Of a stretch of DNA of 64,000 nt, positions 21,194-62,413 are shown piece by piece. The notes beneath the pieces were generated by a model that was not told the origin of the DNA, made no database searches, and was given only the letters and a program-made list of their open reading frames with translations. Each line of letters opens with the position of its first letter. Position 1 is the first letter of the stretch. A program made the translations under genes and the position numbers. Source of the stretch: Candidatus Omnitrophota bacterium. Its GTDB lineage: Bacteria > Omnitrophota > Gorgyraeia > Zapsychrales > Zapsychraceae. The DNA lies in NCBI GenBank assembly GCA_029261065.1, contig JAJDCB010000030.1, positions 324,876 to 388,875 on the forward strand. Direction: 5' to 3'.

Positions 21194-21194
21194 T

Positions 21195-26509: not shown

Positions 26510-26526
26510 GGGTAGAGAATTCAAAT

Positions 26527-29091: not shown

Positions 29092-29099
29092 TTAATCAT

Positions 29100-29853: not shown

Positions 29854-29873
29854 AAATGCCGGGAGTAAGGTTA

Positions 29874-32878: not shown

Positions 32879-32879
32879 G

Positions 32880-33986: not shown

Positions 33987-33989
33987 AAG

Positions 33990-44160: not shown

Positions 44161-44165
44161 GGTAT

Positions 44166-44196
44166 TTGACCTAGTCCCCGCCGTTGGCGGGGTCAA
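44166..44196 (+). terminator. GC-rich hairpin (TTGACC..CCCCGCC-GTT-GGCGGGG..GGTCAA), same motif as inside the MITEs
   Basis: Seen directly. No clean U-tract follows. Confidence 0.3.
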
Positions 44197-44271
44197 TTCG
44201 TACTTCTAATTTATGCTTCCTTTGGTCGCATAAATTAAGTTCTCATTGAAATAAGGAGAAATGAAGAAATT

Positions 44272-47012: not shown

Positions 47013-48645
47013 TACAGCGCTACCAGGGATCTTTCAATTTTTAAAGAAACAAGCTGTGCAATTAAGGTATGGCAAAGAATTGAAATTGAGGAAAAACTGG
47101 TATTATCAACCTTTGAGTGAAGGGCTGCATGGATTGGAATTCTTTAAATCAACAACTCTGACACCCCATTGGCTGACATTAAATCAGGAATTAAGAGCTG
47201 GTGTTATGATTGATCAAAAGAAAGGCTTTATTTTAGAAATCAATGCCACAGAGGACATCGAATGGATTCAATGTGCTGTGGGTGCTCTTAAAAAAAGTGA
47301 GATTAAAAGAGTAAGAATTTCTATTGATGACAAATGCAAAGCGGAAATTTTGGATATGGCAACAGATATTTGGAATGATATGCGTATAAAAATTGAAGGG
47401 CAACAAACAAGCTTTCAATTAAGGGTTGAATGGGAAGGAGCGGGCACGTTGTATTATTCGCATCCTTTTATTAACAAAGGCATATCCCCTAAAGAAGCAA
47501 ACTCTCAAAAGAATATTATTTGTTTGGTGTTAGATGGTATCACAGCGGAATGTATTGATAAGGACAGGACGCCTCATATGTATGCTTTTTTTAAAGGCGG
47601 GGTTGAGTGTAGCAATGTTTACTCTCAAGGAGATTGGACGCTGCCGGCTTTCTCATCGATGTTAACAGGACAATATCCTTCTAAACATGGTGTGACAAAT
47701 CCAGACCAACATGAAACGGTTTTGGATGCAAAAACGCAGACGTTGCCACAGCTATTAAGAGAAGGCGGTTATCGCACCTTTGGTTATTCAAGCCATCTTC
47801 GATTTAATCCCGCTTATGGCCATGCGAAAGGTTTTGAACGATTCTTTTTTCGACCCTTAGCCTATGACCATAACTATGTTCAGCAAATACACGAAGCGAT
47901 ATGGCAGCTTGAGGCCCACCGGGATGAACCAAACTTTTTATTTCTTCATTTTTTTGATTCGCATCCACCGTATAAGCCGTTTACGTATTTAAAGAATGTT
48001 TTAACAAAACCTTTTAGAACAGGGGACTCTTCGTATCGAACGAAGGAAGATGGTGACGATCGTTATGAATTGGATGATCGGTTAACAAAATTAAAAGAAA
48101 TGGACTTGGCTTTTGGAATGTTTTTTTCGTATCTAAAAGAGCAGCCTTGGTTTGATCAATCCACCGTTATTCTTACGGCTGATCATGGGGTGACTCAAGT
48201 TCAGGAGAAAAAACCTTTATTATTATTTGATCGCGTCAATATTCCTTTATTTGTACGATCAAGTGAATTGAGTCAACACAAGAACAGTGATTTTGTTGAG
48301 GGTAATGTTGACTTGATGGCTTCAATTCTACATTTGGCGCAAATTGAGACGCCACCGAACGTAGATGGAAGGTTGTGGTCTTTTTTAGGTGGAGAGATAA
48401 GAAATCAAGCCTTTAGTGAATCGTTATATAGAAAAGTTTACTCAGCGGTGATACGCGATCATTCCAACTGTTATCATTTTAAATGTCCCTTTGATGAGAT
48501 TACAAGAAAGATTAGTTTCGAAGCCCTTGAATCTCTTACGGCTTATAAGCGTGTTAATGGACGAGATGTGGAAGAAGATGTTGTGGTTGAAAATAATCAG
48601 CAAGGTGATGTTCAGGATAAATTTAGAAAATATTTAGAGGTCTAG
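46987..48645 (+). CDS. alkaline-phosphatase-superfamily protein (sulfatase/phosphotransferase-like, predicted Thr nucleophile) with an N-terminal domain of unknown function
   Basis: Blocks VLDGIT..D..RTP, TLPAFSSMLTG (Thr in the C-x-P-x-R position) and LTADHG. Confidence 0.45.
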   Translation: MKQSQTTHNTALPGIFQFLKKQAVQLRYGKELKLRKNWYYQPLSEGLHGLEFFKSTTLTPHWLTLNQELRAGVMIDQKKGFILEINATEDIEWIQCAVGALKKSEIKRVRISIDDKCKAEILDMATDIWNDMRIKIEGQQTSFQLRVEWEGAGTLYYSHPFINKGISPKEANSQKNIICLVLDGITAECIDKDRTPHMYAFFKGGVECSNVYSQGDWTLPAFSSMLTGQYPSKHGVTNPDQHETVLDAKTQTLPQLLREGGYRTFGYSSHLRFNPAYGHAKGFERFFFRPLAYDHNYVQQIHEAIWQLEAHRDEPNFLFLHFFDSHPPYKPFTYLKNVLTKPFRTGDSSYRTKEDGDDRYELDDRLTKLKEMDLAFGMFFSYLKEQPWFDQSTVILTADHGVTQVQEKKPLLLFDRVNIPLFVRSSELSQHKNSDFVEGNVDLMASILHLAQIETPPNVDGRLWSFLGGEIRNQAFSESLYRKVYSAVIRDHSNCYHFKCPFDEITRKISFEALESLTAYKRVNGRDVEEDVVVENNQQGDVQDKFRKYLEV

Positions 48646-48650
48646 AGGCT

Positions 48651-49292
48651 ATGAATGATGTTGTTGTTATCGGAGGTGGAGGACATGCGCGGGTTGTCAT
48701 TAGTCTTTTAAAGAAAATAAAAGATTATCATGTGTTGGGATATGTGGCTCAGGAGGATAATGGAGACATTCTTGGGGTTTCGTATTTGGGGAGTGATCAA
48801 AAGTTAGAAACTATAATAAAAGAAAATCCGAGATGTGCGGCTGTTATTGGTGTTGGTAAAATTGATTTAGAAGATAAGCGTATGGCAATAAAAGCAAAAT
48901 TAGAACTATTAAAATTTGATTTACCAGCAATTGTTTCTCCTTTTGCGATTATTAATGAGAATATATTTTTAGGAGAGGGCGTGGTGATCATGGATGGAGT
49001 TGTAATACAAACAGGAGCGAGGATTGGAAATTGCGCACTTGTAAATACGGGGTGTTGTGTTGATCATGATTGCGTGATTGGAGACAATGTTCATCTCGCC
49101 CCTGGCGTTTCTTTAAGTGGTGGCGTTGAGATTGGGGATAATAGTTTGATAGGCACAGGTTCTAGTGTTGTGCAATATAAGAAAATTGGAAAGGATTGTT
49201 TGATTGGGGTAGGAAGTGCTGTTGTTGATGATTGTGTAAGTTCTGGTACGTATGTCGGCGTGCCGGCAAGAAAAGTGAAAGACTCGTCATGA
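48651..49292 (+). CDS. hexapeptide-repeat N-acetyltransferase, PglD/NeuD/LegH-like
   Basis: N-terminal VVIGGGGHARVV Rossmann-like motif plus C-terminal left-handed beta-helix repeats. Confidence 0.75.
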   Translation: MNDVVVIGGGGHARVVISLLKKIKDYHVLGYVAQEDNGDILGVSYLGSDQKLETIIKENPRCAAVIGVGKIDLEDKRMAIKAKLELLKFDLPAIVSPFAIINENIFLGEGVVIMDGVVIQTGARIGNCALVNTGCCVDHDCVIGDNVHLAPGVSLSGGVEIGDNSLIGTGSSVVQYKKIGKDCLIGVGSAVVDDCVSSGTYVGVPARKVKDSS

Positions 49293-50320
49293 GTAAAAGA
49301 AGAAAAAAAGTTTATATTATTGGCGAAGCTGGCGTTAATCATAATGGCAGTTTAAAGTTAGCCAAACAATTAATTGATGTGGCGGCCCGTTGTGGGTGTG
49401 ATGCGGTCAAGTTTCAAGTGTTTCAAGCGGATCTGCTTTTAAGCAAGAAGGCTCATTTGGCTCAGTATCAAAAAGAGGGCATCAGTTCAAAAATCAAGAC
49501 ACAACATGACCTTATAAAGGGATTAGAATTGTCTTTTGAAGATTTCGAAAAGTTATACAAGCATTGTGAGAAGAGGGGTATTGAATTTTTGGCAACGCCT
49601 TTTGATAAGACAAGTGTGGATTGGTTAATGGCATTAAAGGTTTCGTGTTTTAAAATTTCTTCGGGCGAACTAACCAATTTACCGTTTTTAGATTATGTGT
49701 CACGCAAGAAAAAACCAATGATATTATCGACGGGAATGGCTAATATGGATGAGATTAAAGAAGCTGTCGATACGATTAAGAAGAATAACAGTAAAATTGT
49801 TCTGTTGCATTGTATTACAGAATATCCGGCGCCCATGGATCAATTAAATTTGCGCGCGATACAAACGTTGCAGAATCATTTTGGTGTTGAAGTTGGTTTC
49901 TCTGACCATTCGTTGGGCATTGAAGCCTCTCCTGCGGCAGTGGCTTTGGGAGCGACGATTATAGAAAAACATTTTACGTTGGATCGAGGAATGGCTGGTC
50001 CAGATCATAAGGCGTCCTTAGAAGAAAATCAGCTTAAAAACATGATCACAAATATTCGTCTTGTGGAATCGGCTTTAGGAGACGGTGTTAAGAAAATTGC
50101 GGCATGCGAGAAGAAATATGTAGATTTAGTGCGCAAGAGTTTGGTTGCGGTCTCAACCATAGATAAGGGACAAGTTATTAAAGAGTCAGATCTAGCGATT
50201 AAGAGGCCTGCCGGAGGAATTGGACCAAAAGCATTTAATCGAGTCATTGGGCTAAAAGCACGGAAACGAATTGTATCAGACAGTATTATTCGTTGGAGCG
50301 ATGTTTATGAAAAAGCGTAA
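49289..50320 (+). CDS. neuB: N-acetylneuraminate-synthase-family enzyme (LegI/NeuB-like)
   Basis: VYIIGEAGVNHNGS N-terminus and C-terminal SAF domain. ATGA overlap. Confidence 0.85.
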   Translation: MSKRRKKVYIIGEAGVNHNGSLKLAKQLIDVAARCGCDAVKFQVFQADLLLSKKAHLAQYQKEGISSKIKTQHDLIKGLELSFEDFEKLYKHCEKRGIEFLATPFDKTSVDWLMALKVSCFKISSGELTNLPFLDYVSRKKKPMILSTGMANMDEIKEAVDTIKKNNSKIVLLHCITEYPAPMDQLNLRAIQTLQNHFGVEVGFSDHSLGIEASPAAVALGATIIEKHFTLDRGMAGPDHKASLEENQLKNMITNIRLVESALGDGVKKIAACEKKYVDLVRKSLVAVSTIDKGQVIKESDLAIKRPAGGIGPKAFNRVIGLKARKRIVSDSIIRWSDVYEKA

Positions 50321-51488
50321 AATATGTATCATTTCAGGATCACGCGCGGATTATAGTCATATGTATTGGCTTATTAAAGAATGTGATCAAGATAAAGACA
50401 TTAATCTTCAGCTTTTGGCGACAGGCATGCATTTATCGAAACGTCATGGTTTGAGTTATCAGATGATTCAACAAGATGGCTTTAAGATTGGGAAGAAAAT
50501 TGATATTCTCCGTTACTCTAACACAGATGAAGGGGTTGCTCATAGTGTGGGGTTAGGGTGTCAACTGTTTACAAAAGCGTACAAAGAACTAAAGCCAGAT
50601 ATTGTTGTGATTTTTGCAGATCGTTTTGAGATGATGGCGGCTTGCCTATCAGCTTACATGTTAAAGATTCCCATCGTTCATCTGCATGGAGGAGAAACAT
50701 CTCAAGGTGCGCTTGATGAAGCAATACGACACAGTATTACGAAAATGGGATCGGTTCATTTTACGGCTACTGAGGATTATCGTCGACGCGTTGTTCAATT
50801 AGGGGAAAATCCAAAACGTGTTTTTCACGTAGGTTCCCCAGGATTAGAATCGTTGTCCCATCAAAAATATTTGAGCAAGAGCGAGTTAGCTAAAAAATTA
50901 AAATTTGATTTTGATGGTCAAGTAGCCCTTATGACTTATCATCCGGTTACGCTTGAGAAAAATACAGTTACAAAGCACGTGGGGCAATTACTCAAAGCTA
51001 TAAAAGCAACATCTCTTAAGGTGATTATGACTAAGTCAAATGCGGATGCTCAAGGTGATGTGATTAACAAGATGTTGCGTGATTTTTGTCGTGATAACCC
51101 CAAACGATTTAAGCTTTATGATTATTTGGGTCAATTTCTCTATTATAATTGTCTGAAATCTGCAGATGTGTTAATCGGTAACTCATCAAGCGGTATTGTT
51201 GAGGCTCCGTCTTTTAAGATACCAGTTGTTAATGTCGGTGATAGACAAAAGGGACGAGTTCGTTCGGTTAATATTATTGATGTTAATAATTCAACAGCCA
51301 ATATTTTAGCTGGAATAAAAAAAGCGTTATCCAAAAGCTTTTTAACAAAATTAAAGGGAATGAATAATCCTTATCAGAAGTATAAAGATGGACGCGTTGC
51401 GTATCGCATTAAAGAAAAATTAAAGAAAATAAAGTTGGATGATTCGATTTTAAAAAAAGAATTTTACGATATCAAGTTTCAGTATTAA
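50307..51488 (+). CDS. neuC: hydrolysing UDP/GDP-HexNAc 2-epimerase (NeuC/LegG-like)
   Basis: KICIISGSRADYSHM N-terminus and epimerase_2 family blocks. Confidence 0.8.
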   Translation: MKKRKICIISGSRADYSHMYWLIKECDQDKDINLQLLATGMHLSKRHGLSYQMIQQDGFKIGKKIDILRYSNTDEGVAHSVGLGCQLFTKAYKELKPDIVVIFADRFEMMAACLSAYMLKIPIVHLHGGETSQGALDEAIRHSITKMGSVHFTATEDYRRRVVQLGENPKRVFHVGSPGLESLSHQKYLSKSELAKKLKFDFDGQVALMTYHPVTLEKNTVTKHVGQLLKAIKATSLKVIMTKSNADAQGDVINKMLRDFCRDNPKRFKLYDYLGQFLYYNCLKSADVLIGNSSSGIVEAPSFKIPVVNVGDRQKGRVRSVNIIDVNNSTANILAGIKKALSKSFLTKLKGMNNPYQKYKDGRVAYRIKEKLKKIKLDDSILKKEFYDIKFQY

Positions 51489-51497
51489 AGGAATGCT

Positions 51498-52568
51498 ATG
51501 AAATTAAAGGTTAGAAAAATGTTTGTGGAAGAAGATTTGTCCGTTAAGGAAGCTATGCGCAAGATGAGTGAGATTGGTGAGAAAATTCTCTTTGTCGTTA
51601 ATAATCAGAAAAAGCTTCTTGGAACGGTGACTGATGGTGATATTCGTCGTTGGGTGTTGGCAGAGGGAGCTTTGACGGAGGAGATTAAGAAAGTTTATAA
51701 TCCAAAACCATTTTACGTTGATAAAGGAAGCGATGTGAAGGAAGCCAAAGAAATTATGCTTAAAGAAAAGTTAGGCGGTCTTCCTGTTTTAGATGAGGAT
51801 AAGGTTGTCGATGATGTTTTGTTGTGGGACCGTGTTTGGGGAGCCAATGGGGGGGAGATCAAAAATAAGATTGATATTCCGGTTCTTATTATGGCAGGGG
51901 GAAAAGGCACGCGCTTAGATCCTTTCACAAAAGTATTGCCTAAGCCGTTGATACCTATCGGTGAGAAAACAATAATTGAAATTATTCTTGATAAATTTAA
52001 ACAATATGGCACTAAAGAGTATTACATCTCTATTAATCATAAATCACGCATGATGAGGGCTTTCTTTGAAGAAGTTAATACAGGGTTTTCCATTCATTTT
52101 GTTGAGGAGAAAAAACCTTTAGGCACGGCGGGAAGTTTGAAGTTGTTAGAGGGAAAAATCAAGAAGTCTTTAATTGTTTCAAATTGCGACATTATTATTG
52201 ATGCCGATTATAACGATATTGTTGATTTTCATTATGCAAAAAAGAATGATATTACAATTGTTGGTTCCTTCCGACATTTTACTGTACCTTATGGGATTTG
52301 TCAGATCGAAGAAGGTGGTAATTTGGTAAGCATGCAAGAAAAGCCAGAGTACGACTTATTAGTTAACACAGGGATGTATGTGATTAATAAAAGTGTTTTT
52401 AAATTTGTAAAGAAAAACAAATATTTAAATATGACGAGTTTAATTGATATTGTTAAAGATCAAGGTGGCAAGGTAGGCGTGTTTCCTATTGATGAAAAAT
52501 CTTGGATTGATGTAGGCCAATGGGAAGACTATCATCGCGCTATTCGTGCTTTTGAATTAAAACAGTAA
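51498..52568 (+). CDS. CBS-domain + sugar-1-phosphate nucleotidyltransferase (PtmE-like)
   Basis: Tandem CBS pair at the N-terminus, then GGKGTRL nucleotidyltransferase motif. Confidence 0.7.
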   Translation: MKLKVRKMFVEEDLSVKEAMRKMSEIGEKILFVVNNQKKLLGTVTDGDIRRWVLAEGALTEEIKKVYNPKPFYVDKGSDVKEAKEIMLKEKLGGLPVLDEDKVVDDVLLWDRVWGANGGEIKNKIDIPVLIMAGGKGTRLDPFTKVLPKPLIPIGEKTIIEIILDKFKQYGTKEYYISINHKSRMMRAFFEEVNTGFSIHFVEEKKPLGTAGSLKLLEGKIKKSLIVSNCDIIIDADYNDIVDFHYAKKNDITIVGSFRHFTVPYGICQIEEGGNLVSMQEKPEYDLLVNTGMYVINKSVFKFVKKNKYLNMTSLIDIVKDQGGKVGVFPIDEKSWIDVGQWEDYHRAIRAFELKQ

Positions 52569-52580
52569 AGGGAATCAATT

Positions 52581-53468
52581 ATGAAAAATGTTCGCGTTAT
52601 CGCCCGACTTGATATTAAGGGACCTAACCTTGTTAAAGGTATTCATCTAGAAGGTTTAAGGGTGTTGGGAAAGCCAGAACACTTTGCCCAATATTATTAT
52701 GAAAATGGGGCGGATGAATTATTTTATATGGATATTGTGGCCAGTTTGTATGGAAGAAATAGTTTATTAGATATTATTGAACGCACATCTAAAGAAGTTT
52801 TTATTCCTATTATTGTAGGCGGAGGTTTAAGAACGATTGAAGATATTAATGCTGTACTTCGCGCGGGAGCTGATAAGGTATCCCTTAATACAGCCGCGAT
52901 TAAAAATCCTGATTTTATCCGACAAGCCGCTAATCGGTTTGGATCGTCAACGATTATCGTTTCTATTGAGGCAATAAAGGAAAAGGAAGGACAGTATTTT
53001 GTTTATACGGATAATGGTCGTGAATATACTGGCAAAGAAGTTTTTCAATGGGCGAGAGAGGTATGCGAGTTGGGGGCTGGGGAAATTATGATAACTTCTG
53101 TTGATCGGGAAGGCACAGGGACAGGTTATGATCTTGAGTTAACTAAAAAAGTGGCTGAGTCTGTTCCTATTCCTGTCATTGCATGTGGTGGGGCTGGTCG
53201 ATTGGAACATATTGAAAATGTTGTTATTGAGGGTAAGGCTGATGCGTTAACGGTGGCATCTATGATTCATTATGATTTTATTAAGCATCACACGATTGAG
53301 GCGGATTACTCAGCGGAAGGAAATGTTGAATTTCTAAAAAAGAAAATGATTTTCTCTAAAATAGAGACAGTTAGTTTAGAAACGATTAAGAGTCATCTCA
53401 TGAACTCTGGCATCAATTGTCGTTTTAAACATCATGGCGAAATCAACAAACCATTAAACATATGTTGA
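52581..53468 (+). CDS. HisF-like cyclase subunit (WbuZ-like) of a glutamine-dependent sugar amidotransferase complex
   Basis: HisF (beta/alpha)8 blocks, e.g. IIVGGG. Confidence 0.75.
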   Translation: MKNVRVIARLDIKGPNLVKGIHLEGLRVLGKPEHFAQYYYENGADELFYMDIVASLYGRNSLLDIIERTSKEVFIPIIVGGGLRTIEDINAVLRAGADKVSLNTAAIKNPDFIRQAANRFGSSTIIVSIEAIKEKEGQYFVYTDNGREYTGKEVFQWAREVCELGAGEIMITSVDREGTGTGYDLELTKKVAESVPIPVIACGGAGRLEHIENVVIEGKADALTVASMIHYDFIKHHTIEADYSAEGNVEFLKKKMIFSKIETVSLETIKSHLMNSGINCRFKHHGEINKPLNIC

Positions 53469-53506
53469 ATTCGCTTAAGGCCAGGGCATTGTCAAAAGAG
53501 CAATGA

Positions 53507-53655
53507 AAGATACAAGTTACAAGACACAAGATACAAAAAAATATCAATGTTCAAGGTCCAATAACCAAAAAGGCTATCGTCAAGAAATTGTTTGGAATTT
53601 TTATTTTGTGAATTGTTTCTTTTTTGTATCTTGTGTCTTGTAACTTGGTTATTTT
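53507..53655. mobile_element. MITE-like element, copy D (degenerate; GTTACAAGACACAAGATACAAAAAA ... TTTTTTGTATCTTGTGTCTTGTAACTTGGTTATT)
   Basis: Seen directly. It separates the hisF-like and hisH-like genes. Confidence 0.55.
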
Positions 53656-53699
53656 ATAGAGTTTTTGACAATACGAAGACCATATCAAGGAGCTAATAA

Positions 53700-54404
53700 A
53701 TGTCTGAGAAACGAGATCAGTATGTAGCTATTATTGATTATAAGATGGGTAATCTATTTAGTGTTAAGCAAGCTTGTGAGCAAGTTGGTATTAAGGCTAT
53801 TGTTACAGAAAAAAAAGAAGAGATTCTTAATGCTTCTGGGCTGATATTGCCTGGCGTCGGAGGTTTTGGTGATGCCATGCAACATTTAAGGGATCTAGAT
53901 TTAATTGAGGTGATCAGAGATGAGATTGCTGCTGGCAAACCTTTGTTAGGGATTTGTTTAGGGTTACAGTTGCTTATGTCTGAGAGCGAAGAATTTGGAT
54001 CCCATGAGGGGCTTGGATTAATTGAGGGAAAGGTTAAAAAATTTAAATTAGAAAATAGTGAAGGTCGGGTGAGTAAAGTTCCTCAAGTGGGCTGGAATCA
54101 GATTGCTAGTGTACGGACAAAACAAGAATTACATTGGAATCAAACGCCATTGCAACATATTAAGGAAGATGATTATTTGTATTTTGTGCATTCTTATTTT
54201 GTTGAACCTACGTTAAGTGATGTTGTTTTATCTCAAAGCACATACGAGGGAGTGTCATTTTGTTCTAGCGTTTTAAAAGATAATATATTTGCTGTTCAAT
54301 TTCATCCTGAGAAGAGTGCCTCTGTTGGGCTTCAGATCTATAAGAATTGGTTTACACAATTTTGTCAAGAACCTACAAATAAGGAGATGAGTCGTGTTTT
54401 TTAA
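53700..54404 (+). CDS. HisH-like class I glutamine amidotransferase (WbuY-like)
   Basis: Catalytic Cys block GICLGLQLL and the H-P-E triad region (QFHPEKS). Confidence 0.75.
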   Translation: MSEKRDQYVAIIDYKMGNLFSVKQACEQVGIKAIVTEKKEEILNASGLILPGVGGFGDAMQHLRDLDLIEVIRDEIAAGKPLLGICLGLQLLMSESEEFGSHEGLGLIEGKVKKFKLENSEGRVSKVPQVGWNQIASVRTKQELHWNQTPLQHIKEDDYLYFVHSYFVEPTLSDVVLSQSTYEGVSFCSSVLKDNIFAVQFHPEKSASVGLQIYKNWFTQFCQEPTNKEMSRVF

Positions 54405-56886
54405 TAAAACGTTAGATAAGTATATGTCCCAGAAAGTTACAGATGTTAAATTTTGCAAGAAATGCGTCGTCTCTAATCAAAGACCTCGAATCAATCTTGA
54501 TGAAGATGGTGTGTGTAGTGCCTGCCGTTTTGCTCATCAGAAACATAACAAGATTGATTGGGCTTCGCGTGAAAAAGATTTGATTGAGTTATTAGATCAA
54601 TATAGATCTAAAGATGGGAGCTATGATTGTATTGTTCCTGTCAGCGGTGGAAAAGATAGTGGTTATGTGGCGCATCAACTTAAATTCAAATATGGGATGC
54701 ATCCTTTGACTGTGACTTGGGCTCCGTTTTTGTATACGGATATTGGATGGCAAAATTATATTAGTTTTAAAGACACTGGTTTTGATAATGTGCTTTGTTT
54801 TCCTAATGGAAAGATACATCGCAAGTTATCACGTCTAAGCTTTGAACTTGTAGGTGACGCTTGGGAGCCTTTTGCGTATGGACAAAAAGCTTATGCTTTT
54901 CAAATTGCTGTTAAGTTTAAAATTCCTCTTATTTTTTATGGAGAAAGTGGTGAGGTTGAATATGGGGGTTCTGTTAAGAATATAGACAAACCTTCTGAAG
55001 GAATTACTGATTGGAAAAACTTTTATTATAAGGGATCAAGTTTGGACGAGATTGCCAAGCATGGTTTAGAGTGTGGTTTTTTAACGGAAGAAGAAGTTAA
55101 AGATAAATCATTCGAGTTTTATAATCCTCCTAATATGGAAGAGGTTGAGAAAATTGGTGCGCAGATGCATTGGTTTTCTTTTTACAAAAAATGGGTTCCT
55201 CAAGAAAATTATTATTATGCCGTGGAGCATTTAGCGTTCCAAGCTAATCCTGGACGATCTGAAGGGACATATTCGAAATATGCAAGCTTAGATGATAAAA
55301 CAGATGGTTTTCACTATTATTTGGGTTATATCAAGCACGGATTAGGAAGAACGACATCTGATGCTGCCCATGAAATTCGAGATGGCCATTTAACAAGAGA
55401 AGAGGGTGTTGCTCTTGTGCAAAGATACGATGGAGAGTTTCCGAAAAAATATTTTAAAGAGTTTTTAGAATATTTGGAAATTGATGAATACCAATTTAAT
55501 GAAGTGATTGATTTTTATAGAAATATGTCGCCTCATCTTTGGAAAAAAGAAGATGGTGTTTGGAAATTGACGCATCAAGTCACGGATTTAAATGTTAAAC
55601 GTGAAAAAATTGAAGTTCAACCGGAGGTTAAGTCCGTTGAAGTTAAAGCATCCAATGAGAAAATTTTCTCAAAACATGGATTACCGGAAAAGGTTATTTT
55701 TTGTAAAAGTTGTGTCATGTCGAATCAGCGTCCCGCATCTAGTGTTGAATTTAAACATAAGGTCACGCATAAACATCGCGCCTTAAGGATTAACGATGAA
55801 GGAATTTGCGATGCTTGCCAATATGCTCGGCAAAAAGATAAGATTCAATGGAAAAAAAGAGAAGATGAACTGCTTCAATTGTTGGATAAACATCGTCGGA
55901 CTGATGGACAATATGATTGTATTGTTCCTGGTAGCGGGGGGAAAGATAGTTGTTATGCTTCCCATATTTTAAAATACAAATATGGCATGCATCCTTTAAC
56001 GATCACATGGCCACCTATTTTGTATACCGATATTGGATACAAAAATTTTCGAAATTGGATTAGTGTCGGGGGATTTGACAATATCTCTTTTAATTATAAC
56101 GGTAAAAATCATGCGTTATTAACTAAATTAGCTATTCAGAATTTGTTACATCCTTTTCAACCGTTCATTTTAGGTCAGAAAAATCTTGCTCCAAAGATTG
56201 CGATTAAGTATGACGTGCCGCTTATTTTTTACGGAGAAAATGAAGCGGAATATGGTAACCCAATCGCGGATAATGTCTCCTCTATGCGAGATAAATCTTA
56301 TTACACGATGTCGAATTTGGATGAAGTCTTTTTGGGTGGGGTTTCTGTAAAGGAGTTGATGGAAAAATATGGATTATCCTATCATGATGTGCAAACATAT
56401 TTGCCCGCCGATCATCAGGAGATTCAACGTTCGAAGACGGAGGTTCATTATCTTGGTTATTATTTAAAATGGACCCCTCAAGAATCTTATTATTACGCTG
56501 TGGAACATACGGGATTTGAAGCGAATCCTGTAAGGACAGAAGGGACTTACAGCAAATATAATAGTCTTGATGATAAAATCGATGGCCTACATTATTATAC
56601 GACATTTGTAAAGTTTGGTTTGGGTCGGGCCACTTATGATGCTTCACAAGAGATTAGAAATAAACATTTAACGCGTGAAGAGGGGATGGCTCTTGTTAAG
56701 AGGTTTGATGGAGAGTTTCCCGAACGTTATTTTAAAGAAGTGATGGATTTCATTGGAATGAGCGAAGATGAATTTAGAAATAATTGTGATAGATTTCGTT
56801 CGCCTCATTTATGGGAAAAACAAGCGGGAAGTTGGAAATTAAGAAATTCTATCTATGAACAATCAGATCAACTTGTTTTAGGATGA
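54394..56886 (+). CDS. tandem-duplicated, fused N-acetyl-sugar amidotransferase (two WbuX-like PP-loop modules in one 830-aa protein)
   Basis: Two internal repeats, each with a Cys-rich N-terminus (CKKCVVSNQRP...CSAC; CKSCVMSNQRP...CDAC) and a PP-loop (VPVSGGKDSGY; VPGSGGKDSCY). GTG start with an AAGGAG RBS. Confidence 0.7.
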   Translation: MFFNKTLDKYMSQKVTDVKFCKKCVVSNQRPRINLDEDGVCSACRFAHQKHNKIDWASREKDLIELLDQYRSKDGSYDCIVPVSGGKDSGYVAHQLKFKYGMHPLTVTWAPFLYTDIGWQNYISFKDTGFDNVLCFPNGKIHRKLSRLSFELVGDAWEPFAYGQKAYAFQIAVKFKIPLIFYGESGEVEYGGSVKNIDKPSEGITDWKNFYYKGSSLDEIAKHGLECGFLTEEEVKDKSFEFYNPPNMEEVEKIGAQMHWFSFYKKWVPQENYYYAVEHLAFQANPGRSEGTYSKYASLDDKTDGFHYYLGYIKHGLGRTTSDAAHEIRDGHLTREEGVALVQRYDGEFPKKYFKEFLEYLEIDEYQFNEVIDFYRNMSPHLWKKEDGVWKLTHQVTDLNVKREKIEVQPEVKSVEVKASNEKIFSKHGLPEKVIFCKSCVMSNQRPASSVEFKHKVTHKHRALRINDEGICDACQYARQKDKIQWKKREDELLQLLDKHRRTDGQYDCIVPGSGGKDSCYASHILKYKYGMHPLTITWPPILYTDIGYKNFRNWISVGGFDNISFNYNGKNHALLTKLAIQNLLHPFQPFILGQKNLAPKIAIKYDVPLIFYGENEAEYGNPIADNVSSMRDKSYYTMSNLDEVFLGGVSVKELMEKYGLSYHDVQTYLPADHQEIQRSKTEVHYLGYYLKWTPQESYYYAVEHTGFEANPVRTEGTYSKYNSLDDKIDGLHYYTTFVKFGLGRATYDASQEIRNKHLTREEGMALVKRFDGEFPERYFKEVMDFIGMSEDEFRNNCDRFRSPHLWEKQAGSWKLRNSIYEQSDQLVLG

Positions 56887-56894
56887 AATAATTA

Positions 56895-57836
56895 ATGATG
56901 AAGATAGTTATGTTTGGATTAGGTTCAATTGGTCATAGGCATGCCAGGATCTTAAAAGATCATTTTGATTGTAAGCTGTATGCTTATCGTCGGAAAAAAG
57001 GTGAGGGTAACGACTTGGGGGTAGAAGAAATTGATAGCGATCAAGAGCTTCAAGCCCTTAATGCCGATATCGCCTGTATTTGTAATCCAACATCGTTTCA
57101 TATGGATACAGCTATAAAATGTGCCAAGTTAAATATGCATTTGTTCATTGAAAAACCGTTGTCGCATTCTTTATCAAAAATTGATGAGCTAACATCGTTG
57201 TGTCATAAGAAACATTTGACGTGTTACACGGCATATAACTTAAGGTTTCATCCTGTTATAGGAAAGATTAAAGTGTTGCTTCAGAAAAGAAAGTTGTATC
57301 ACGCACGCATTGTTTGTAGTTCTTATTTACCTGATTGGCGAGCAGATCAAGATCATAAGTTAAGCTACTCCTCATCAAAAGAATTGGGGGGCGGTGTTGT
57401 TTTTGATTTGTCCCACGAATTGGATTTTACGCAGTATCTTTTTGGATCAATTAAAGAGATGGAGGGGCATTATCTTCGACGTGCTGATATCACCCTTGAT
57501 TCGGAGGACTGTGTGGATATCTTGTTGCGTTGTGACGATAATTTACCGGTGAATATGCATCTTAATTTTTTATCTCACCTTAAGGAGCGTACGATCAAAG
57601 TAGATTTTGAAAATGGATATATCGTGGGTGATTTAATGAATAATGAAGTCCGGTTTTATTGTGATGGTGAGCTTCAACAATTTAGTTTTGATGAGAATAT
57701 GCATGATGTCTATCGCAATCAATGGCAGTATTTTTTTGATCATATGAATAAACCAAAGGGGATGAATCAAATTGATGAATCCAAAGAATTATTAGAAAAA
57801 ATGGTGAAATTTAAGGTTGAAGCACATGCAGGATAG
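56895..57836 (+). CDS. Gfo/Idh/MocA-family NAD(P)-dependent oxidoreductase (PtmF-like)
   Basis: N-terminal Rossmann motif MFGLGSIGHRH. Confidence 0.65.
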   Translation: MMKIVMFGLGSIGHRHARILKDHFDCKLYAYRRKKGEGNDLGVEEIDSDQELQALNADIACICNPTSFHMDTAIKCAKLNMHLFIEKPLSHSLSKIDELTSLCHKKHLTCYTAYNLRFHPVIGKIKVLLQKRKLYHARIVCSSYLPDWRADQDHKLSYSSSKELGGGVVFDLSHELDFTQYLFGSIKEMEGHYLRRADITLDSEDCVDILLRCDDNLPVNMHLNFLSHLKERTIKVDFENGYIVGDLMNNEVRFYCDGELQQFSFDENMHDVYRNQWQYFFDHMNKPKGMNQIDESKELLEKMVKFKVEAHAG

Positions 57837-58542
57837 AATTTTATTAACGGTGGCTGCTCGAGGGGGATCTAAAGGGGTTAAGAATAAAAATATTCGTGAT
57901 CTTAATGGACTTCCTTTAATCGCGCACACTATTAATCAAGCCATAGCTTGGGGAAAAGCGGATTCAATTGTTTGTTCGACTGATTCACAAGATATTGCCG
58001 ATGTTGCTCGTGAATATGGAGCTCAAGTGCCTTTTATGCGTCCTGAACATTTAGCGGAAGATACTTCAGGAAAACGGGATGTGCTTAAACACGCTTTAAA
58101 ATATATGGAAGATCAGACGCTAAGCAAATTTAACATCCTTATTGATCTAGATGCAACAGCTCCCATTCGTACTTTAAGCGATTTGGATGGTTCTTTGGAA
58201 TTGTTTAAAGAAAAACAAGCGAAGTGTGTTTTCAGTGTAACACCTGCACGAAAGAATCCTTATTTTAATATGGTGGAGCTCGATGCTAACAATGTCTCAA
58301 GGTTATCCAAGAATTTAAAAAAACCGTTAGTTCGAAGGCAAGATGCACCAAAGGTATTTGATATGAATGCTTCTATTTATATTTATGATCGCGAGTTTTT
58401 ATTGGATGAAAAGTCAGATACCGTATTTTCAGATCAATCCTATGCCTGGGTGATGGATGAAATATCCGCTTTTGATATTGATACCGAACAAGATTTTCGG
58501 TTTTTAGAATTTTTAACTAAAGAACAGTTGGTTCAACTATGA
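57826..58542 (+). CDS. neuA: CMP-nonulosonic acid synthetase (acylneuraminate cytidylyltransferase; LegF/PtmB/NeuA-like)
   Basis: N-terminal AARGGSKGVKNKN motif. Confidence 0.8.
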   Translation: MQDRILLTVAARGGSKGVKNKNIRDLNGLPLIAHTINQAIAWGKADSIVCSTDSQDIADVAREYGAQVPFMRPEHLAEDTSGKRDVLKHALKYMEDQTLSKFNILIDLDATAPIRTLSDLDGSLELFKEKQAKCVFSVTPARKNPYFNMVELDANNVSRLSKNLKKPLVRRQDAPKVFDMNASIYIYDREFLLDEKSDTVFSDQSYAWVMDEISAFDIDTEQDFRFLEFLTKEQLVQL

Positions 58543-59327
58543 TCGATTATTTATCTAAATTTTCACTTAAAGGGAAAAAGGCTGTTGTCACAGGTGGTTG
58601 TGGGCTTATTGGTGGTGAGATCGTTTCGGCATTATCTCAAGCCGGAGCAGATGTTCTGGTGGCTGACATTAATAAAGAGAAGGCCTCACAGATTATTGGA
58701 GAAGGTCGGGATCATGAAGGAGGTGTCGCGTTTTATCATTTTGATATAACTGATATCGAGCAGTTAAAAAGTAATATAGAAAATATGACAAAACAAGCAA
58801 CACAAGTGGATATTTGGGTGAATAGTGCTTATCCAAGAACAGAGGACTGGGCGGCAGCTCCGGAAGATATAAAAGCAGATTCGTGGCAAAAAAATGTAGA
58901 TATGCAGTTAAATTCTTTTTCTCTTTCGTCAAAATATATTGCTGAGCACATGAAAGAAAGAGGTGGGAGCATTATTAATTTAGGCTCCATTTACGGTGTA
59001 TTAGGGCCAGATTTTAGCGTGTACGATGGAACGGAAATGACTAACCCAATGGCATACGCCGCCATAAAAGGTGGCATTATTAATTGTGATCGTTATCTGG
59101 CTTCGTATTTTGGAAAATTTAATGTTCGTGTTAACACCGTTTGTCCTGGTGGCGTTTTTGCGGATCAAAATGCTACGTTTGTTAAAAATTATAATAAGAA
59201 AACGCCTTTAGGGCGTATGGCCAAGACAGAAGAAGTTGCTTCTGCTGTTTTGTTTTTAGCCTCAGATGCTGCTTCCTATATTACGGGAAGTACATTTTTG
59301 GTCGATGGTGGGTGGAGTATTGTTTAA
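58539..59327 (+). CDS. short-chain dehydrogenase/reductase (PtmA-like)
   Basis: TGGCGLIGG cofactor motif and YAAIK (YxxxK). ATGA overlap. Confidence 0.75.
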   Translation: MIDYLSKFSLKGKKAVVTGGCGLIGGEIVSALSQAGADVLVADINKEKASQIIGEGRDHEGGVAFYHFDITDIEQLKSNIENMTKQATQVDIWVNSAYPRTEDWAAAPEDIKADSWQKNVDMQLNSFSLSSKYIAEHMKERGGSIINLGSIYGVLGPDFSVYDGTEMTNPMAYAAIKGGIINCDRYLASYFGKFNVRVNTVCPGGVFADQNATFVKNYNKKTPLGRMAKTEEVASAVLFLASDAASYITGSTFLVDGGWSIV

Positions 59328-59345
59328 AGAAAGTGATGTGTATTG

Positions 59346-60326
59346 ATGAGTAGGGCTTTTGTTGCAGATAAAAAAAGACTCATAAAGAATTTGGTCATTA
59401 TTGATGGTCATGTTCGGACTGGTAAGTTTTTTATGGGTAATGTATTGGATGGGTTTGAAAAGATCGATCATTATCAGTGTGTTGGCGTCTTAGAACAAGT
59501 GCCTCATTTGGAGTACTTGGGATTTATCCCAAGGCAAACAGCAAAATTTTTGATTCAAACAACCATTGATACTTATGGTTATAACATGCGTGTAGGACGC
59601 GATTTAAATTTTCGAAAAGGTGATAAATCTAGTTTAGTAGGGAGTTTTGAGGAAAAAAGATATGTTAAGCGTATGAATGAAGAGAAGGGGTATAAGCAAG
59701 TTTTAAGGGATATTGCAAGTGATGGAAGATATTCCGTTTTTATCCTTCATGAAATCATGATGAATATAAAACTATTGTTTGAAGCCTTTCCACAGTTAAA
59801 AGTTTTAAGGATGAATCGTCATCCTGTTGATGTGATTCATTCTTGGTATAAAAAGGGATGGTGCAAAAGGGAGGCAACCGATCCATTTTCATTCGGACCA
59901 TGTATAACAGCAAAGGATGGTGATATAGCATGGTATGCGCATCCTTGGCGAGAGAAATATAATGTGTTATCCCATATGGATCGTGTTATTGAGTGTTTAA
60001 ACTATTTATCTAGAAGTGCAAAAAAAGGCTATGCTTCGCTTGAGAGTAAATATCAAAAACGGATTAACGTTATTTCTTATGAAAATTTGGTAGAAGAGCC
60101 TCAAAAAGTTTTAAAGAGTATTGGCAAGTTTTTAAAAATAGATCCTTCAAAACATATGTCAAAGATATTAGAGAAAGAACATTGCCCAGGAAAGATATCG
60201 TTAGATGCTAGAGAAGATAAAAAGAAATTTATTGAGAAAAAAGCGTCAAGAGCAGGTTTTGAGACGTTGTTGCGTTTATCAAAAGAGTATGAAGACAATT
60301 ATCAGTTGTTAAATTGGCTGCAATAG
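59346..60326 (+). CDS. PAPS-dependent sulfotransferase-like protein
   Basis: 5'-PSB-like HVRTGKF and a strong 3'-PB-like RHPVDVIHSWY (compare SULT RNPKDVAVSYY). PAPS-synthesis genes sit in the same locus. Confidence 0.55.
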   Translation: MSRAFVADKKRLIKNLVIIDGHVRTGKFFMGNVLDGFEKIDHYQCVGVLEQVPHLEYLGFIPRQTAKFLIQTTIDTYGYNMRVGRDLNFRKGDKSSLVGSFEEKRYVKRMNEEKGYKQVLRDIASDGRYSVFILHEIMMNIKLLFEAFPQLKVLRMNRHPVDVIHSWYKKGWCKREATDPFSFGPCITAKDGDIAWYAHPWREKYNVLSHMDRVIECLNYLSRSAKKGYASLESKYQKRINVISYENLVEEPQKVLKSIGKFLKIDPSKHMSKILEKEHCPGKISLDAREDKKKFIEKKASRAGFETLLRLSKEYEDNYQLLNWLQ

Positions 60327-60334
60327 AGAAACTT

Positions 60335-62413
60335 ATGAGTCAAAAAGATACAAATAAAAGAATTGAAAGAATTTGTTGGATTGAACAACTAGATGTTGTT
60401 TCTTTATTGAGTTTTTTATCTTTGCATGCAAAGAGCAAATTTTCGCATGTCAAATATACAAGAGTTTCAAGAAGAGCTTTAAAGTTATTCCAACTGTTTT
60501 GCAAAAAAGATTGTGATGTGTCTGCTGTTGAATTTGCTCATAGAGAGGTTACGGTCTTTGATAAGTTACAAGTTATTAGAGAATACGATAAAAATAACAA
60601 TACAACCTCTTCATTAAATTCATATGATTTGGCTAAAGAAGGGATTCTTAAAAATATTGTAGGTCATGGAGCAACTCAAAAGATGAGTCAATTTCTTGAT
60701 CAGGAATTGGCGATGGAATTAAAGGGGCCTTTGAGTTTGATTCAGCAGATTCAATTAGATAAGAATTCTGATAGGGAAGTTAATAGTGTTATCAATCATG
60801 TATTGGTGAAAAATACGCCGTGGGTTTCTTCTCTTAATGGTTATATTAAATCCAATAATTTATCTATTGTCTTAAATCCTTTTTTTAATATAAGAGGGGC
60901 CTTGGCCTTAGTTTATCAACCGATTAAGCTGTTGTGTGAGCTTTTGGCAAATGGTTTATTAATGTTAGTGGGACAAAGTGTGCATAAAAGAGAGATTCCT
61001 AAAAATAGGAAGATTGCGGTATTATTCGCGCAGGGTGCGAATTTGGAAAAACGTTGTGATTTTTACTGGTATTCTCGATCGTTGTTTAGCCCTGATGATA
61101 TCATTGTATATTTTAAGACACACTTGCATCCTCCTACGGAGAAAGTTATAAAATTACTCAAAGGTTATGCTTTGCCTTGGTTAAAATTAATGCCACGAAG
61201 ATTGAAACTGTCTCCAACGCAGCAAACAGCATTTGAGATTAACATATTTCCTTGCTCAGAATACAGTAAGGGTATTAAAAGAACAATGAAGTTAGCGTGG
61301 GCGTTGCTATTTGCTCATGGAAAAGAAGGTTATTTCGGATTCTATTGGTTTTGGCCTAAATTACTTCATCTTATGGATGATGTTCATTTTTTCCGTGCTT
61401 TTTTTGAAGTTTATAATGTGAAGTTGCATTATGGTGCGTATGAATACGGGCGGCATATGATGGCTGCTAATATTGCTATCGATATGGAAGATGGGGTGGA
61501 TCTTTGTCATCATTGGTCTAATTACGATTTTGTTGATATCCCATTAAGTAAGCCTCATGATGTGTATTTTACGTGGGGACCCTATTTTAAGAATAATTTC
61601 TTCGATCAACCCTTTTATCATGTAAAAAATTATGTTTCCTCCGGGTATATTCACGATTTTACATTTTCGTTATATAAAGAATTGGCCCAAAAACATAAAG
61701 AGAGATTGTTAGAAAAGGGAGCTAAGTTTATTATTAGTTTCTTTGATCAAGAGTTATGGGATATTGAATCTATTTGGAATAAAGAACATATCCGTATGTA
61801 TCAATTTTTATTGGAGTTACTTATTGAAAATAAAGATTTAGGGCTTATCATTAAACCAAAAAAGATTTCTTCTAATGAACATTTTAAGACGTGTTACCCT
61901 GGGCTAAAAGATTTGTTTTTAAAGGCGTTAGAAACTAAAAGACTTATACTTCTTGATAAATTCTCTGTTCCTTGTGAAGCGGCTATGGCTTCTGATCTTG
62001 CGATAGGCATGGGTGTTTCCAGTTCGCCTTCACTGGAGGCTGCTCTTTTAGGTATTAAATCTGTAACTTACGATGCCGAAGGCGTGGGCCATCATCCTAT
62101 GTATGAAAAAGGAATTAATAATGTCATTTTCTCTGATATTGAAGCTATGAAACAATCCGTCCGAAAGTGTTTAGACCAAACAGATGATTGTCATGTCGGT
62201 GATTATTCTTTTGTCATAGATGATGTGGATCCATTTCGAGATGGTCGATCTCGAGAACGTGTTGGAGAGTATGTATGCTCTTTATTAGATAGTATTAATA
62301 AGGGAAAACACAAAAAGGAAGCTATTGATTTAACAAATGAAGAATATAGAGGGCGTTACGGTTTTGATTCTGTAATGCCACGGATCAATGAAGATCAACT
62401 CGTTAACCATTAG
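60335..62413 (+). CDS. large hypothetical cytoplasmic protein (candidate glycosyl- or nonulosonate transferase)
   Basis: ORF of about 690 aa with no recognisable motif. Located between the sulfotransferase and dehydrogenase genes. Confidence 0.3.
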   Translation: MSQKDTNKRIERICWIEQLDVVSLLSFLSLHAKSKFSHVKYTRVSRRALKLFQLFCKKDCDVSAVEFAHREVTVFDKLQVIREYDKNNNTTSSLNSYDLAKEGILKNIVGHGATQKMSQFLDQELAMELKGPLSLIQQIQLDKNSDREVNSVINHVLVKNTPWVSSLNGYIKSNNLSIVLNPFFNIRGALALVYQPIKLLCELLANGLLMLVGQSVHKREIPKNRKIAVLFAQGANLEKRCDFYWYSRSLFSPDDIIVYFKTHLHPPTEKVIKLLKGYALPWLKLMPRRLKLSPTQQTAFEINIFPCSEYSKGIKRTMKLAWALLFAHGKEGYFGFYWFWPKLLHLMDDVHFFRAFFEVYNVKLHYGAYEYGRHMMAANIAIDMEDGVDLCHHWSNYDFVDIPLSKPHDVYFTWGPYFKNNFFDQPFYHVKNYVSSGYIHDFTFSLYKELAQKHKERLLEKGAKFIISFFDQELWDIESIWNKEHIRMYQFLLELLIENKDLGLIIKPKKISSNEHFKTCYPGLKDLFLKALETKRLILLDKFSVPCEAAMASDLAIGMGVSSSPSLEAALLGIKSVTYDAEGVGHHPMYEKGINNVIFSDIEAMKQSVRKCLDQTDDCHVGDYSFVIDDVDPFRDGRSRERVGEYVCSLLDSINKGKHKKEAIDLTNEEYRGRYGFDSVMPRINEDQLVNH

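Follow-up and report, generated by a model that had tools for sequence, protein, structure and literature searches.

Within the 64,000-nucleotide window, which is the whole stretch of DNA analyzed here, positions 42000-59327 hold the genes for a GDP-type CMP-legionaminic acid (Leg) pathway together with genes for HisF/WbuZ, HisH/WbuY, and an 830-aa double WbuX (NASAT). The one unusual feature of this otherwise standard Leg and amidination cluster is the NASAT, which is a fusion of two paralogues. We are confident of three assignments taken together: a Leg pathway, an amidination system, and a NASAT fused from two paralogues. The whole explanation, in which the fused protein also carries out two different reactions, we judge to be evenly balanced.

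Genes for the sugar and its amidination

Based on family models, the Leg set consists of LegB, LegC, LegH/NeuD, LegI/NeuB, LegG/NeuC, PtmE-, PtmF-, and PtmA-like proteins, and LegF. All of the genes named in an earlier note on this DNA were found on the plus strand, in the order and essentially at the coordinates it gave, and its suggestion that an upstream dehydratase and aminotransferase pair could be LegB and LegC agrees with our searches, in which the models of those two families are the best matches. The NAD-dependent 4,6-dehydratase (42000-42974) matches TIGR04180 LegB best by far, at 462.5 bits, just below the cut-off of 475, and the aminotransferase (42967-44160) reaches 450.6 bits with the LegC model TIGR04181 (cut-off 420) and only 218 with the PseC model.

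The remaining pathway genes begin with a LegH/NeuD-family N-acetyltransferase (48651-49292; TIGR03570, 194.1 bits vs. 160.8; PglD_N and hexapeptide repeats), followed by a LegI/NeuB nonulosonate synthase (49289-50320; PF03102 and SAF domains) that scores 435.5 bits with TIGR03569 (vs. 399.65) and 308 with the PseI model, under the cut-off of 340. Next are a LegG/NeuC hydrolysing 2-epimerase (50310-51488; TIGR03568, 451.3 bits vs. a cut-off of 235.9) and a PtmE-like protein (51498-52568) that combines CBS domains (PF00571) with a sugar-1-phosphate nucleotidyltransferase (PF00483, NTP_transferase), an architecture also found in related Leg-type loci. Beyond the amidotransferase genes, a PtmF-like Gfo/Idh/MocA oxidoreductase (56895-57836; PF01408, PF22725) occupies the position that PtmF has in the Plesiomonas shigelloides Leg cluster (PMC4481668). 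It is followed by a LegF-like CMP-nonulosonate synthetase, a cytidylyltransferase (57817-58542; PF02348 CTP_transf_3, 79 bits; TIGR03584 PseF, 156, below cut-off), and a PtmA-like SDR (58539-59327; PF13561; NF050062 PtmA, 166.8 with a cut-off of 350; NF006619, 235.8 with a cut-off of 255). We assign the pathway to the legionaminic acid type because LegB and LegC are the best models, NeuB passes its model while PseI fails, NeuC is of the hydrolysing kind, and PtmE-, PtmF-, and PtmA-like genes are present. The gene order that had earlier been likened to the Campylobacter ptm cluster is not specific to Campylobacter, since the same LegH-LegI-LegG-PtmE-PtmF-LegF-PtmA block, in the same order, is listed for the experimentally supported Leg cluster of P. 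shigelloides, where homologues from Vibrio fischeri and E. coli are given for every gene (PMC4481668).

The gene string also contains, between legC and legH, an embedded sulfation module of three plus-strand genes (44272-48645) that lies outside the Leg pathway and was absent from the earlier note. It encodes a pyruvate-kinase-like::ATP sulfurylase fusion (44272-46458; pyruvate kinase models on residues 1-340 and the sulfate adenylyltransferase model NF003166, 419 bits, on residues 346-724), an APS kinase (46455-47012; TIGR00455 apsK, 157 bits), and a sulfatase-family protein (46987-48645; PF00884, 100 bits). A sulfotransferase-like protein with weak Pfam matches (59343-60326, plus strand; PF13469, 37 bits; PF00685, 33 bits) is encoded directly 3' of the PtmA-like gene.

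The amidotransferase genes lie between those for the PtmE-like and PtmF-like proteins. The 295-aa HisF paralogue (52581-53468) is WbuZ-type, scoring 273.1 with TIGR03572 WbuZ and 275.1 with TIGR00735 hisF, each just under the cut-off, and is 52-61% identical to the HisF proteins that adjoin WbuX in related loci. The HisH paralogue (53700-54404) is a WbuY-type glutaminase (TIGR01855, 211.7 bits vs. 105.4; PF00117). In related loci hisF and hisH overlap, without a gap. Here the gap contains a MITE/REP-like palindromic element (53488-53672), an inverted repeat whose two 82-nt arms (53488-53569 and 53591-53672) are 74% complementary, with a predicted hairpin energy of -69.7 kcal/mol. Because inverted pairs of its terminal motif are also present at ~7466-7637 and ~15325-15531, the name MITE that was given to it earlier is reasonable. 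HisF-HisH-WbuX sets occur within Leg-type clusters in several uncultured bacteria, and the proposal that the trio is an acetimidoyl-type amidotransferase set fits its link to acetamidino sugars in the WbpG system of P. aeruginosa O5, the WbuX system of E. coli O145, and the LpNASAT system of Legionella (PMC10607449). The models TIGR03573 and TIGR03572 are named for proteins of the E. coli WbuX system, and in C. jejuni it is PtmG that makes acetimidoyl-Leg (preprint 10.64898/2026.04.20.719630). A predicted Leg-type pathway with glutamine-dependent acetamidino formation is well supported by this gene content.

Architecture and ancestry of the double WbuX

The 830-aa ORF (54394-56886, plus strand) matches TIGR03573 WbuX in two stretches, at 696.6 bits with a cut-off of 203.2, and self-alignment of the protein gives two homologous halves with 47% identity over ~397 residues (E = 1e-131). 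Both halves carry an intact SGGKDS PP-loop (residues 84-89 and 514-519) and the zinc four-cysteine motif (C21/C24/C41/C44 and C437/C440/C472/C475), and the family-conserved residues are kept at 30/30 positions in the N module and 27/30 in the C module, which bears out the earlier description of two complete PP-loop modules fused head to tail. The N module (aa 1-406, 54394-55611) is an "N-type" WbuX without a lid insert; it starts at a GTG with AAGGAG 7 nt upstream, and its N-terminus, MFFNKTLD, resembles the MLFNKTLD of the family. The linker (aa 407-414, 55612-55635) corresponds to a former intergenic spacer in which a relic Shine-Dalgarno sequence, GGAGG, can be read at 55623-55627. The C module (aa 415-830, 55636-56886) is a "C-type" WbuX with a lid insert of ~15 aa between the cysteine pairs, which the N half lacks; in LpNASAT the insert between the cysteine pairs sits over the substrate pocket (PMC10607449). 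Inspection of the sequence found no canonical in-frame start codon for the C module before M442, and the Logan contig, assembled separately from the same reads and ending inside the palindromic element of the hisF-hisH gap, is 100% identical to the NCBI contig over 53632-59809. With no separate start codon for the C module and the same bases in both assemblies, the fusion is real in the assembled sequence.

The name "tandem-fused" in the earlier note is right about the fusion, but the halves are not tandem duplicates of one gene, each being closest to a different family of standalone proteins. One such family (397-414 aa) shares 70-76% identity with the N half and another (399-413 aa) 71-77% with the C half, and both types are abundant as proteins of ~400 aa. 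In the phylogeny that the note had proposed, all 100 bootstraps place the N half within the N-type clade and the C half within the C-type clade, the two halves are sisters in 0/100 bootstrap trees, and the C-type and the Legionella long type together form one clade in 100/100. Either type can be found alone beside HisF/HisH in Leg-type clusters (the N-type, for example, in L006 and L028, and the C-type in L011, L012, L003, and L027), so each module descends from a self-sufficient enzyme. These results demonstrate separate ancestry, and the halves are two anciently diverged paralogues joined in frame from formerly separate genes. No second intact double WbuX was found, and none of the related loci L001-L004, L006-L023, and L026-L028 carries two modules.

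Relation to known systems

The Legionella pneumophila serogroup 1 LPS locus likewise combines a Leg pathway with a PP-loop, Zn-Cys4 NASAT (LpNASAT, PDB 8WEX), which makes Leg5Am7Ac. The 830-aa protein matches 8WEX with E = 2.4e-164 in two stretches, the best-scoring of which is residues 410-804, and over trimmed alignment columns the C module and LpNASAT share 58.8% identity; both have the lid insert. The single NASAT of Legionella is 460 aa long and has an additional C-terminal insert, whereas the C module here is one of the shorter, ~400-aa C-type proteins, which form the sister group of the Legionella enzyme, and has a module of the other subfamily fused in front. The C. jejuni ptm/leg system, as described in the cited sources, also has LegB/C/H/G/I/F, PtmE/F/A, and an amidotransferase by which acetamido groups of Leg become acetimidoyl groups (preprint 10.64898/2026.04.20.719630; PMC3766260). 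Its amidotransferase is the single PtmG (Cj1324), accompanied by the methylase PtmH, while the cluster here has its own adjoining HisH/HisF pair, a two-module NASAT, and no adjacent PtmH-like methyltransferase.

WbpG-HisH-HisF of P. aeruginosa O5 and WbuX/WbuY/WbuZ of E. coli O145 are also three-component systems for glutamine-dependent amidation of N-acetyl sugars (PMC10607449), but their substrates are ManNAc3NAcA or L-FucNAc, their genes belong to O-antigen loci, and their WbuX has a single module. Standalone N- and C-type proteins from uncultured bacteria and archaea (for example Omnitrophota, Nitrospiraceae, Scalindua, and Thermoplasmata MAGs) share the HisF-HisH-WbuX neighborhood in NeuB/NeuC/PtmE clusters, with one type and one module in each locus, unlike the protein here. 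Two uncharacterized proteins, P0350 and P0365 (1150 and 1181 aa), do have two WbuX-related modules per chain, but they are only ~27-31% identical to it, the second module of each is incomplete and no longer has a PP-loop, and they carry a GatA-like amidase domain of their own, presumably as an ammonia source replacing HisH/HisF.

One amidination or two

In the route that we propose, with chemistry, substrates, and the activity of each module predicted from sequence, the string at 42000-59327 would make CMP-legionaminic acid via GDP-GlcNAc. The PtmE-, PtmF-, and PtmA-like enzymes would supply the precursor, followed by dehydration by LegB, transamination by LegC, N-acetylation by LegH, hydrolysis and epimerisation by LegG, condensation with PEP by LegI, and activation with CMP by LegF. 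N-acetyl (acetamido) groups would then be converted to acetamidino groups: HisH would hydrolyse glutamine, its partner HisF would pass on the ammonia, and the PP-loop NASAT would adenylate the acetamido carbonyl (ATP to AMP and PPi) and exchange its oxygen for NH. Both modules may be active and non-redundant, performing two different amidinations. The lid insert of the C half, which the N half lacks, suggests that their pockets differ. The C module, as part of the sister group of the Legionella enzyme, would act on N5 of Leg. For the N module the likeliest target would be the N-acetyl group at N7 of that sugar, with 5,7-di-acetamidino Leg as the product, and the alternative a different N-acetyl sugar in the same glycan. 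In L027, which encodes a C-type WbuX, the place of LegH is taken by a formyltransferase; by pathway logic, from this single locus, this would leave the N5 acetyl as the sole target for that WbuX. N-type genes also adjoin methyltransferases, much as PtmG is paired with PtmH, which would make N5 an equally possible target for the N-type. We found no 5,7-di-acetamidino nonulosonate in the searchable literature.

It is possible, if less than probable, that only one reaction occurs. In this reading the fused pair would stand in for the NASAT homodimer as an intramolecular heterodimer, its product would be the ordinary Leg5Am7Ac, and the second module would be redundant or mainly structural. LpNASAT is dimeric in the crystal and in gel filtration (PMC10607449), the interface segment GFDN...NG..H is found in both halves, Leg5Am7Ac is the only amidinated Leg known, and P0350 and P0365, with one intact WbuX and one without a PP-loop, suggest that a non-catalytic partner module is tolerable. 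However, every catalytic signature is kept in both modules, and both families occur singly elsewhere, neither apparently needing the other. The unusual interface residues of the C half, FNYNGKNHA, also occur in standalone relatives such as L011, which argues against a fusion-specific interface adaptation, and retaining two intact modules at such low identity for one product is less parsimonious.

The remaining alternatives concern the fusion itself. A sequence error or very recent lesion, such that the true genes are separate (A7 rather than A6 at 55604-55609) or the C module has only just become a pseudogene, is very unlikely. One added A would give a 406-aa protein ending REKN*, with the stop exactly at the usual N-type end, the relic GGAGG lies in the linker, and only one assembly and one read set represent the organism, all of whose proteins fall in singleton clusters. 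Against this, the NCBI and Logan contigs agree at every base, the first canonical start left to the C module under A7 would be M442, inside its zinc motif, and that module is intact over 415 codons, with its conserved residues largely kept and with the same GC and GC3 as the N half. A recent duplication in tandem of a single WbuX gene, or the assembly duplication artefact that the earlier note had warned of, would also place two homologous modules head-to-tail, but we regard it as eliminated for practical purposes: the halves share only 47% of their residues, their DNA similarity is only patchy (68-79%), each is far closer (71-77%) to a separate standalone family, and no bootstrap tree makes them sisters.

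If both modules of the fused NASAT do act, the sugar may be amidinated twice, and acetamidino groups are positively charged.

Legionaminic acid genes and their surroundings

Curated family models, run for each gene, place all of the gene content listed in the earlier note in a tight string on one strand. LegH/NeuD (48651-49292, TIGR03570 above its cut-off), LegI/NeuB (49289-50320, with the NeuB model TIGR03569 above its cut-off and the PseI model below) and the hydrolysing epimerase LegG/NeuC (50310-51488, TIGR03568 above its cut-off) are followed by a CBS plus nucleotidyltransferase protein with the PtmE architecture (51498-52568), a HisF paralogue (52581-53468) and a HisH paralogue (53700-54404), the latter immediately upstream of the ORF for an 830-aa double WbuX, or N-acetyl sugar amidotransferase (NASAT), at 54394-56886. 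Downstream of this ORF lie a Gfo/Idh/MocA oxidoreductase whose architecture and position fit PtmF (56895-57836), a CMP-sugar synthetase matching the LegF cytidylyltransferase (57817-58542; PF02348, PseF model below its cut-off) and a PtmA-like SDR (58539-59327). No specific family models exist for PtmE and PtmF; the architectures and positions of these two genes and of PtmA fit accessory enzymes that would supply the GDP-linked precursor of the GDP-GlcNAc route to CMP-legionaminic acid, the PtmA model itself reaching only 166.8 against a cut-off of 350. The HisF paralogue scores just under the cut-offs of both WbuZ (TIGR03572, 273.1 against 299.7) and hisF (275.1 against 294.55), and its predicted role as WbuZ is supported by its context and by its 52-61% identity to HisF proteins that adjoin WbuX.

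The gene pair at 42000-44160 had been proposed as LegB and LegC, and these models are indeed the best matches: TIGR04180 (LegB) gives 462.5, marginally below its cut-off of 475 and the best match by far, and TIGR04181 (LegC) gives 450.6 against 420. PgmL and GlmU were not found within the window. Based on the curated models of the gene string and these two matches, the predicted pathway is of the legionaminic acid type, not pseudaminic or neuraminic, as the earlier note had it and as the passing NeuB and failing PseI and PseF models indicate; the product may be Leg, 8eLeg, 4eLeg or Aci. The order had been described as that of the Campylobacter ptm genes. The LegH-LegI-LegG-PtmE-PtmF-LegF-PtmA block is present, but it is not specific to Campylobacter: the Leg cluster of Plesiomonas shigelloides, which has been studied by experiment, is reported with the same block, and for each of the genes Vibrio fischeri and E. 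coli homologues are given as well (PMC4481668), so we regard the order as a widespread Leg arrangement.

Genes for PAPS synthesis lie between legC and legH at 44272-48645 (a 728-aa pyruvate-kinase-like::ATP sulfurylase fusion, an APS kinase and a sulfatase-family protein), and a sulfotransferase-like gene, a weak match, follows ptmA at 59343-60326; together these suggest that the glycan carries sulfate, possibly on a nonulosonate. Short palindromic elements with the terminal inverted motif CAAGTTACAAGACACAAGATACAAAAAA in common occupy intergenic gaps at 53488-53672, ~7466-7637 and ~15325-15531. The first of these, with a predicted hairpin of -69.7 kcal/mol, interrupts the hisF-hisH junction, where the two genes overlap in related loci. 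Genes for CYTH, DUF4956, CotH-kinase-like (854 aa) and VTC-domain proteins stand in a row at 24918-29795, midway through the sugar locus, and look polyphosphate- or phosphorylation-related. The sugar-modification genes at 14319-22914 and 29856-34982 include an HldE-like kinase/adenylyltransferase, a SIS isomerase, epimerases, a split transketolase, two TylCIII-like C-methyltransferases, a DegT aminotransferase and a formyltransferase, and a gene for a HipA-like kinase C-terminal domain (toxin-type) sits at 10120-10983, between corrinoid/iron ABC transporter genes and the glycan locus. No glycosyltransferase family was found among the scanned window ORFs, a GT2 being located just past the 3' end in the adjoining DNA (L025), and two large ORFs, 36086-38155 and 60314-62413, had no family matches.

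Two paralogous modules in one protein

The 830-aa ORF matches the NASAT/WbuX model TIGR03573 in two stretches (696.6 bits, cut-off 203.2) and likewise matches the Legionella pneumophila enzyme LpNASAT (PDB 8WEX) in two stretches (E = 2.4e-164). A self-alignment, suggested earlier as a check, shows that the N and C halves align end to end as proteins with 47% identity, while their DNA is similar only in patches, at 68-79%. This excludes an assembly duplication, which had been named as the finding that would undo the case, and equally a recent tandem duplication. Searching with each half separately was decisive for finding the closest relatives; in a MAFFT alignment of the whole fusion (A1), all homologues were placed on the N half. 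Standalone proteins of 397-414 aa, a large family here called N-type, are 70-76% identical to the N half (aa 1 to ~406). Another large family of standalone proteins, the C-type of 399-413 aa, is 71-77% identical to the C half (aa ~415-830); its members belong to Omnitrophota, Nitrospiraceae, Scalindua, Armatimonadetes, Margulisiibacteriota and also to one Thermoplasmata archaeon.

In a neighbour-joining tree of 44 sequences, the N half fell within the N-type clade and the C half within the C-type clade, each in 100/100 bootstraps, and the C-type joined the longer Legionella-type enzymes in one clade with the same support. The two halves were sisters in none of the bootstrap trees, and each is nearest to a different standalone family, which also argues against duplication. 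Given these separate identities and separate clades, the protein consists, on sequence comparison, of two fused paralogues that diverged long ago. The description of a head-to-tail double WbuX therefore stands as to two complete modules, but not as a repeat of one gene. Recent horizontal transfer of one half is rejected because base composition (GC and GC3) is the same in both.

The ORF starts with a GTG at 54394, with AAGGAG 7 nt upstream, and its N-terminus, MFFNKTLD, agrees with the MLFNKTLD of the family. N-type proteins usually end ~10-15 residues past a WKL.H.V motif; here the reading frame continues past that end through a short linker containing GGAGG (55623-55627) and on to the N-terminus of the C-type (...KHGLPEKVIFCKSC). 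Between residue 392 and M442 the frame offers no canonical start codon. M442 is itself located within the zinc motif of the C module, so that the C module cannot be made separately. With one A added in silico to the A6 run at 55604-55609, the reading frame closes with a stop after an N-type protein of 406 aa, and we infer that two adjacent genes were fused by a one-base deletion. A 6178-bp contig in Logan (run SRR15505515), an assembly made from the same reads as the NCBI contig, is 100% identical to window positions 53632-59809, including the whole fusion. The break in the Logan contig falls inside the palindromic element at 53488-53672.

Both modules look competent. SGGKDS PP-loops are retained at residues 84-89 and 514-519, as the earlier note had read them, and the CxxC...CxxC zinc motif occurs twice (C21/C24/C41/C44 and C437/C440/C472/C475), in both cases aligning with Cys44/47/79/82 of LpNASAT (PMC10607449). 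When the halves were aligned against 68 diverse family members, the N half kept all 30 of the columns that are at least 85% conserved and the C half kept 27, the zinc cysteines and SGGKDS among them; at two of the three positions where the C half departs, the Legionella enzyme departs too. The C half and LpNASAT have a segment of ~15 residues between the cysteine pairs that the N half lacks; according to the authors of the 8WEX structure, it sits over the substrate pocket (PMC10607449). The C half differs from the long-type (Legionella-like) consensus at five positions of the dimer interface. We rejected a fusion-specific adaptation of this interface: the same residues occur in the closest standalone relatives, from the related loci L011, L003 and L012, making them a subfamily trait, and no fusion-specific changes were found in the C half in this comparison.

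Single-module relatives and the search for other fusions

N-type and C-type enzymes each occur singly, adjoining HisF and HisH, in Leg-type clusters. N-type examples are L006 (NeuB-NeuC-NeuD-HisF-HisH-WbuX-PtmE-LegC), L028 and L002, and C-type examples are L011 (NeuC-HisF-HisH-WbuX), L012 (HisF-HisH-WbuX-PtmE), L003 (WbuX-NeuB-NeuC) and L027, which also has a methyltransferase adjoining HisF-HisH-WbuX and, 6 kb downstream (17450-20356), another NeuB-NeuC-cytidylyltransferase set. By percent identity, HisF and HisH of the window are somewhat closer to the partners of C-type enzymes (61% and 52%) than to those of N-type enzymes (53-56% and 44%). No adjacent unfused N-type and C-type pair, nor any two WbuX genes, occurred in the related loci L001-L004, L006-L023 and L026-L028, and no two WbuX genes occurred across 14 plasmid records. 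P0241 and P0492, whose contigs happen to share a length of 2670 bp, turned out to be unrelated.

A full-length search of 5.8 billion protein clusters returned no other intact double WbuX, only the query itself at 830 aa, and the remaining long matches were fusions to HisH, HisF, NeuC or polysaccharide deacetylase. This search appears to omit targets shorter than ~0.55x the query length, so the closest single-module relatives surfaced only in the half-by-half searches. An exhaustive search of 50%-identity representatives, in which doubles may hide under single-module representatives and which did not return the query itself, found a distant family of 1150-1181 aa (P0350, P0365) that joins an intact WbuX to a partial WbuX-like module that has lost its PP-loop and a C-terminal GatA-like amidase. 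These look like self-contained amidotransferases in which the amidase presumably supplies ammonia in place of HisH/HisF. In an apparently archaeal locus (L007:8463-13742, near CDC48, GatD/GatE and TruD genes), a long-type WbuX occurs together with two fusions, HisF-HisH and NeuB-NeuC, showing that genes of the Leg/amidination pathway fuse freely. Clusters of this type have been described before; the two-module NASAT is a new form, found nowhere else in the searches made.

One amidination or two

An acetamidino group neutralises the negative charge of a nonulosonic acid; in Legionella and Campylobacter such groups shape antigenicity, surface charge and host/phage recognition. For the cluster described here, what is already established for these families leads to the predicted Leg pathway and to glutamine-dependent formation of acetamidino groups. 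Precedents for the amidotransferase are WbpG, WbuX and LpNASAT (PMC10607449) as well as PtmG (preprint 10.64898/2026.04.20.719630), and Leg5Am7Ac occurs in Legionella (PMC3766260). Turning acetamido into acetamidino with the use of ATP and glutamine is a putative activity here, as it is for LpNASAT (PMC10607449).

The autonomous ancestry of each module, the intactness of both, their differing pocket lids and their rare co-occurrence suggest that the two modules may carry out two different amidinations. In L027, a formyltransferase (4096-4764) takes the place of LegH, which predicts N7-formyl Leg and would leave only the N5 acetyl open to the C-type enzyme of that single locus; action of the C-type on N5 fits its kinship with the Legionella N5 enzyme. 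The window cluster has the LegH acetyltransferase, so an N7 acetyl would also be present, and the N module might convert it. Both nitrogen substituents of Leg would then be amidinated, giving a net-cationic 5,7-di-acetamidino nonulosonate, a 'sialic acid' of a kind not yet described, maybe sulfated via the embedded PAPS/sulfotransferase genes, with the fusion coupling both steps to one HisH/HisF ammonia source; we put this forward as a speculative and rather unlikely outcome. The fusion could instead be a covalent heterodimer that yields the usual Leg5Am7Ac, since LpNASAT is a dimer. Also against two reactions, our literature search turned up no di-acetamidino nonulosonate, and the N-type enzymes could equally act on N5. 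A substrate from a second N-acetyl sugar pathway, such as a Wbp-type 2,3-diacetamido uronic acid, was rejected, since the DNA just downstream (L025) holds an NDP-sugar dehydrogenase, an epimerase and the GT2 without a clear pathway.

With a single reaction, this would be a Leg5Am7Ac cluster of the common kind, curious for how its enzyme is built; with conversion of both N-acetyl groups, the product would be a new monosaccharide. That two different amidotransferase subfamilies are fused in nature is a Rosetta-stone hint that they have different jobs in the same pathway. The fusion also offers a handle for assigning regiospecificity to both families, which are very large and uncharacterised and count thousands of environmental members each.
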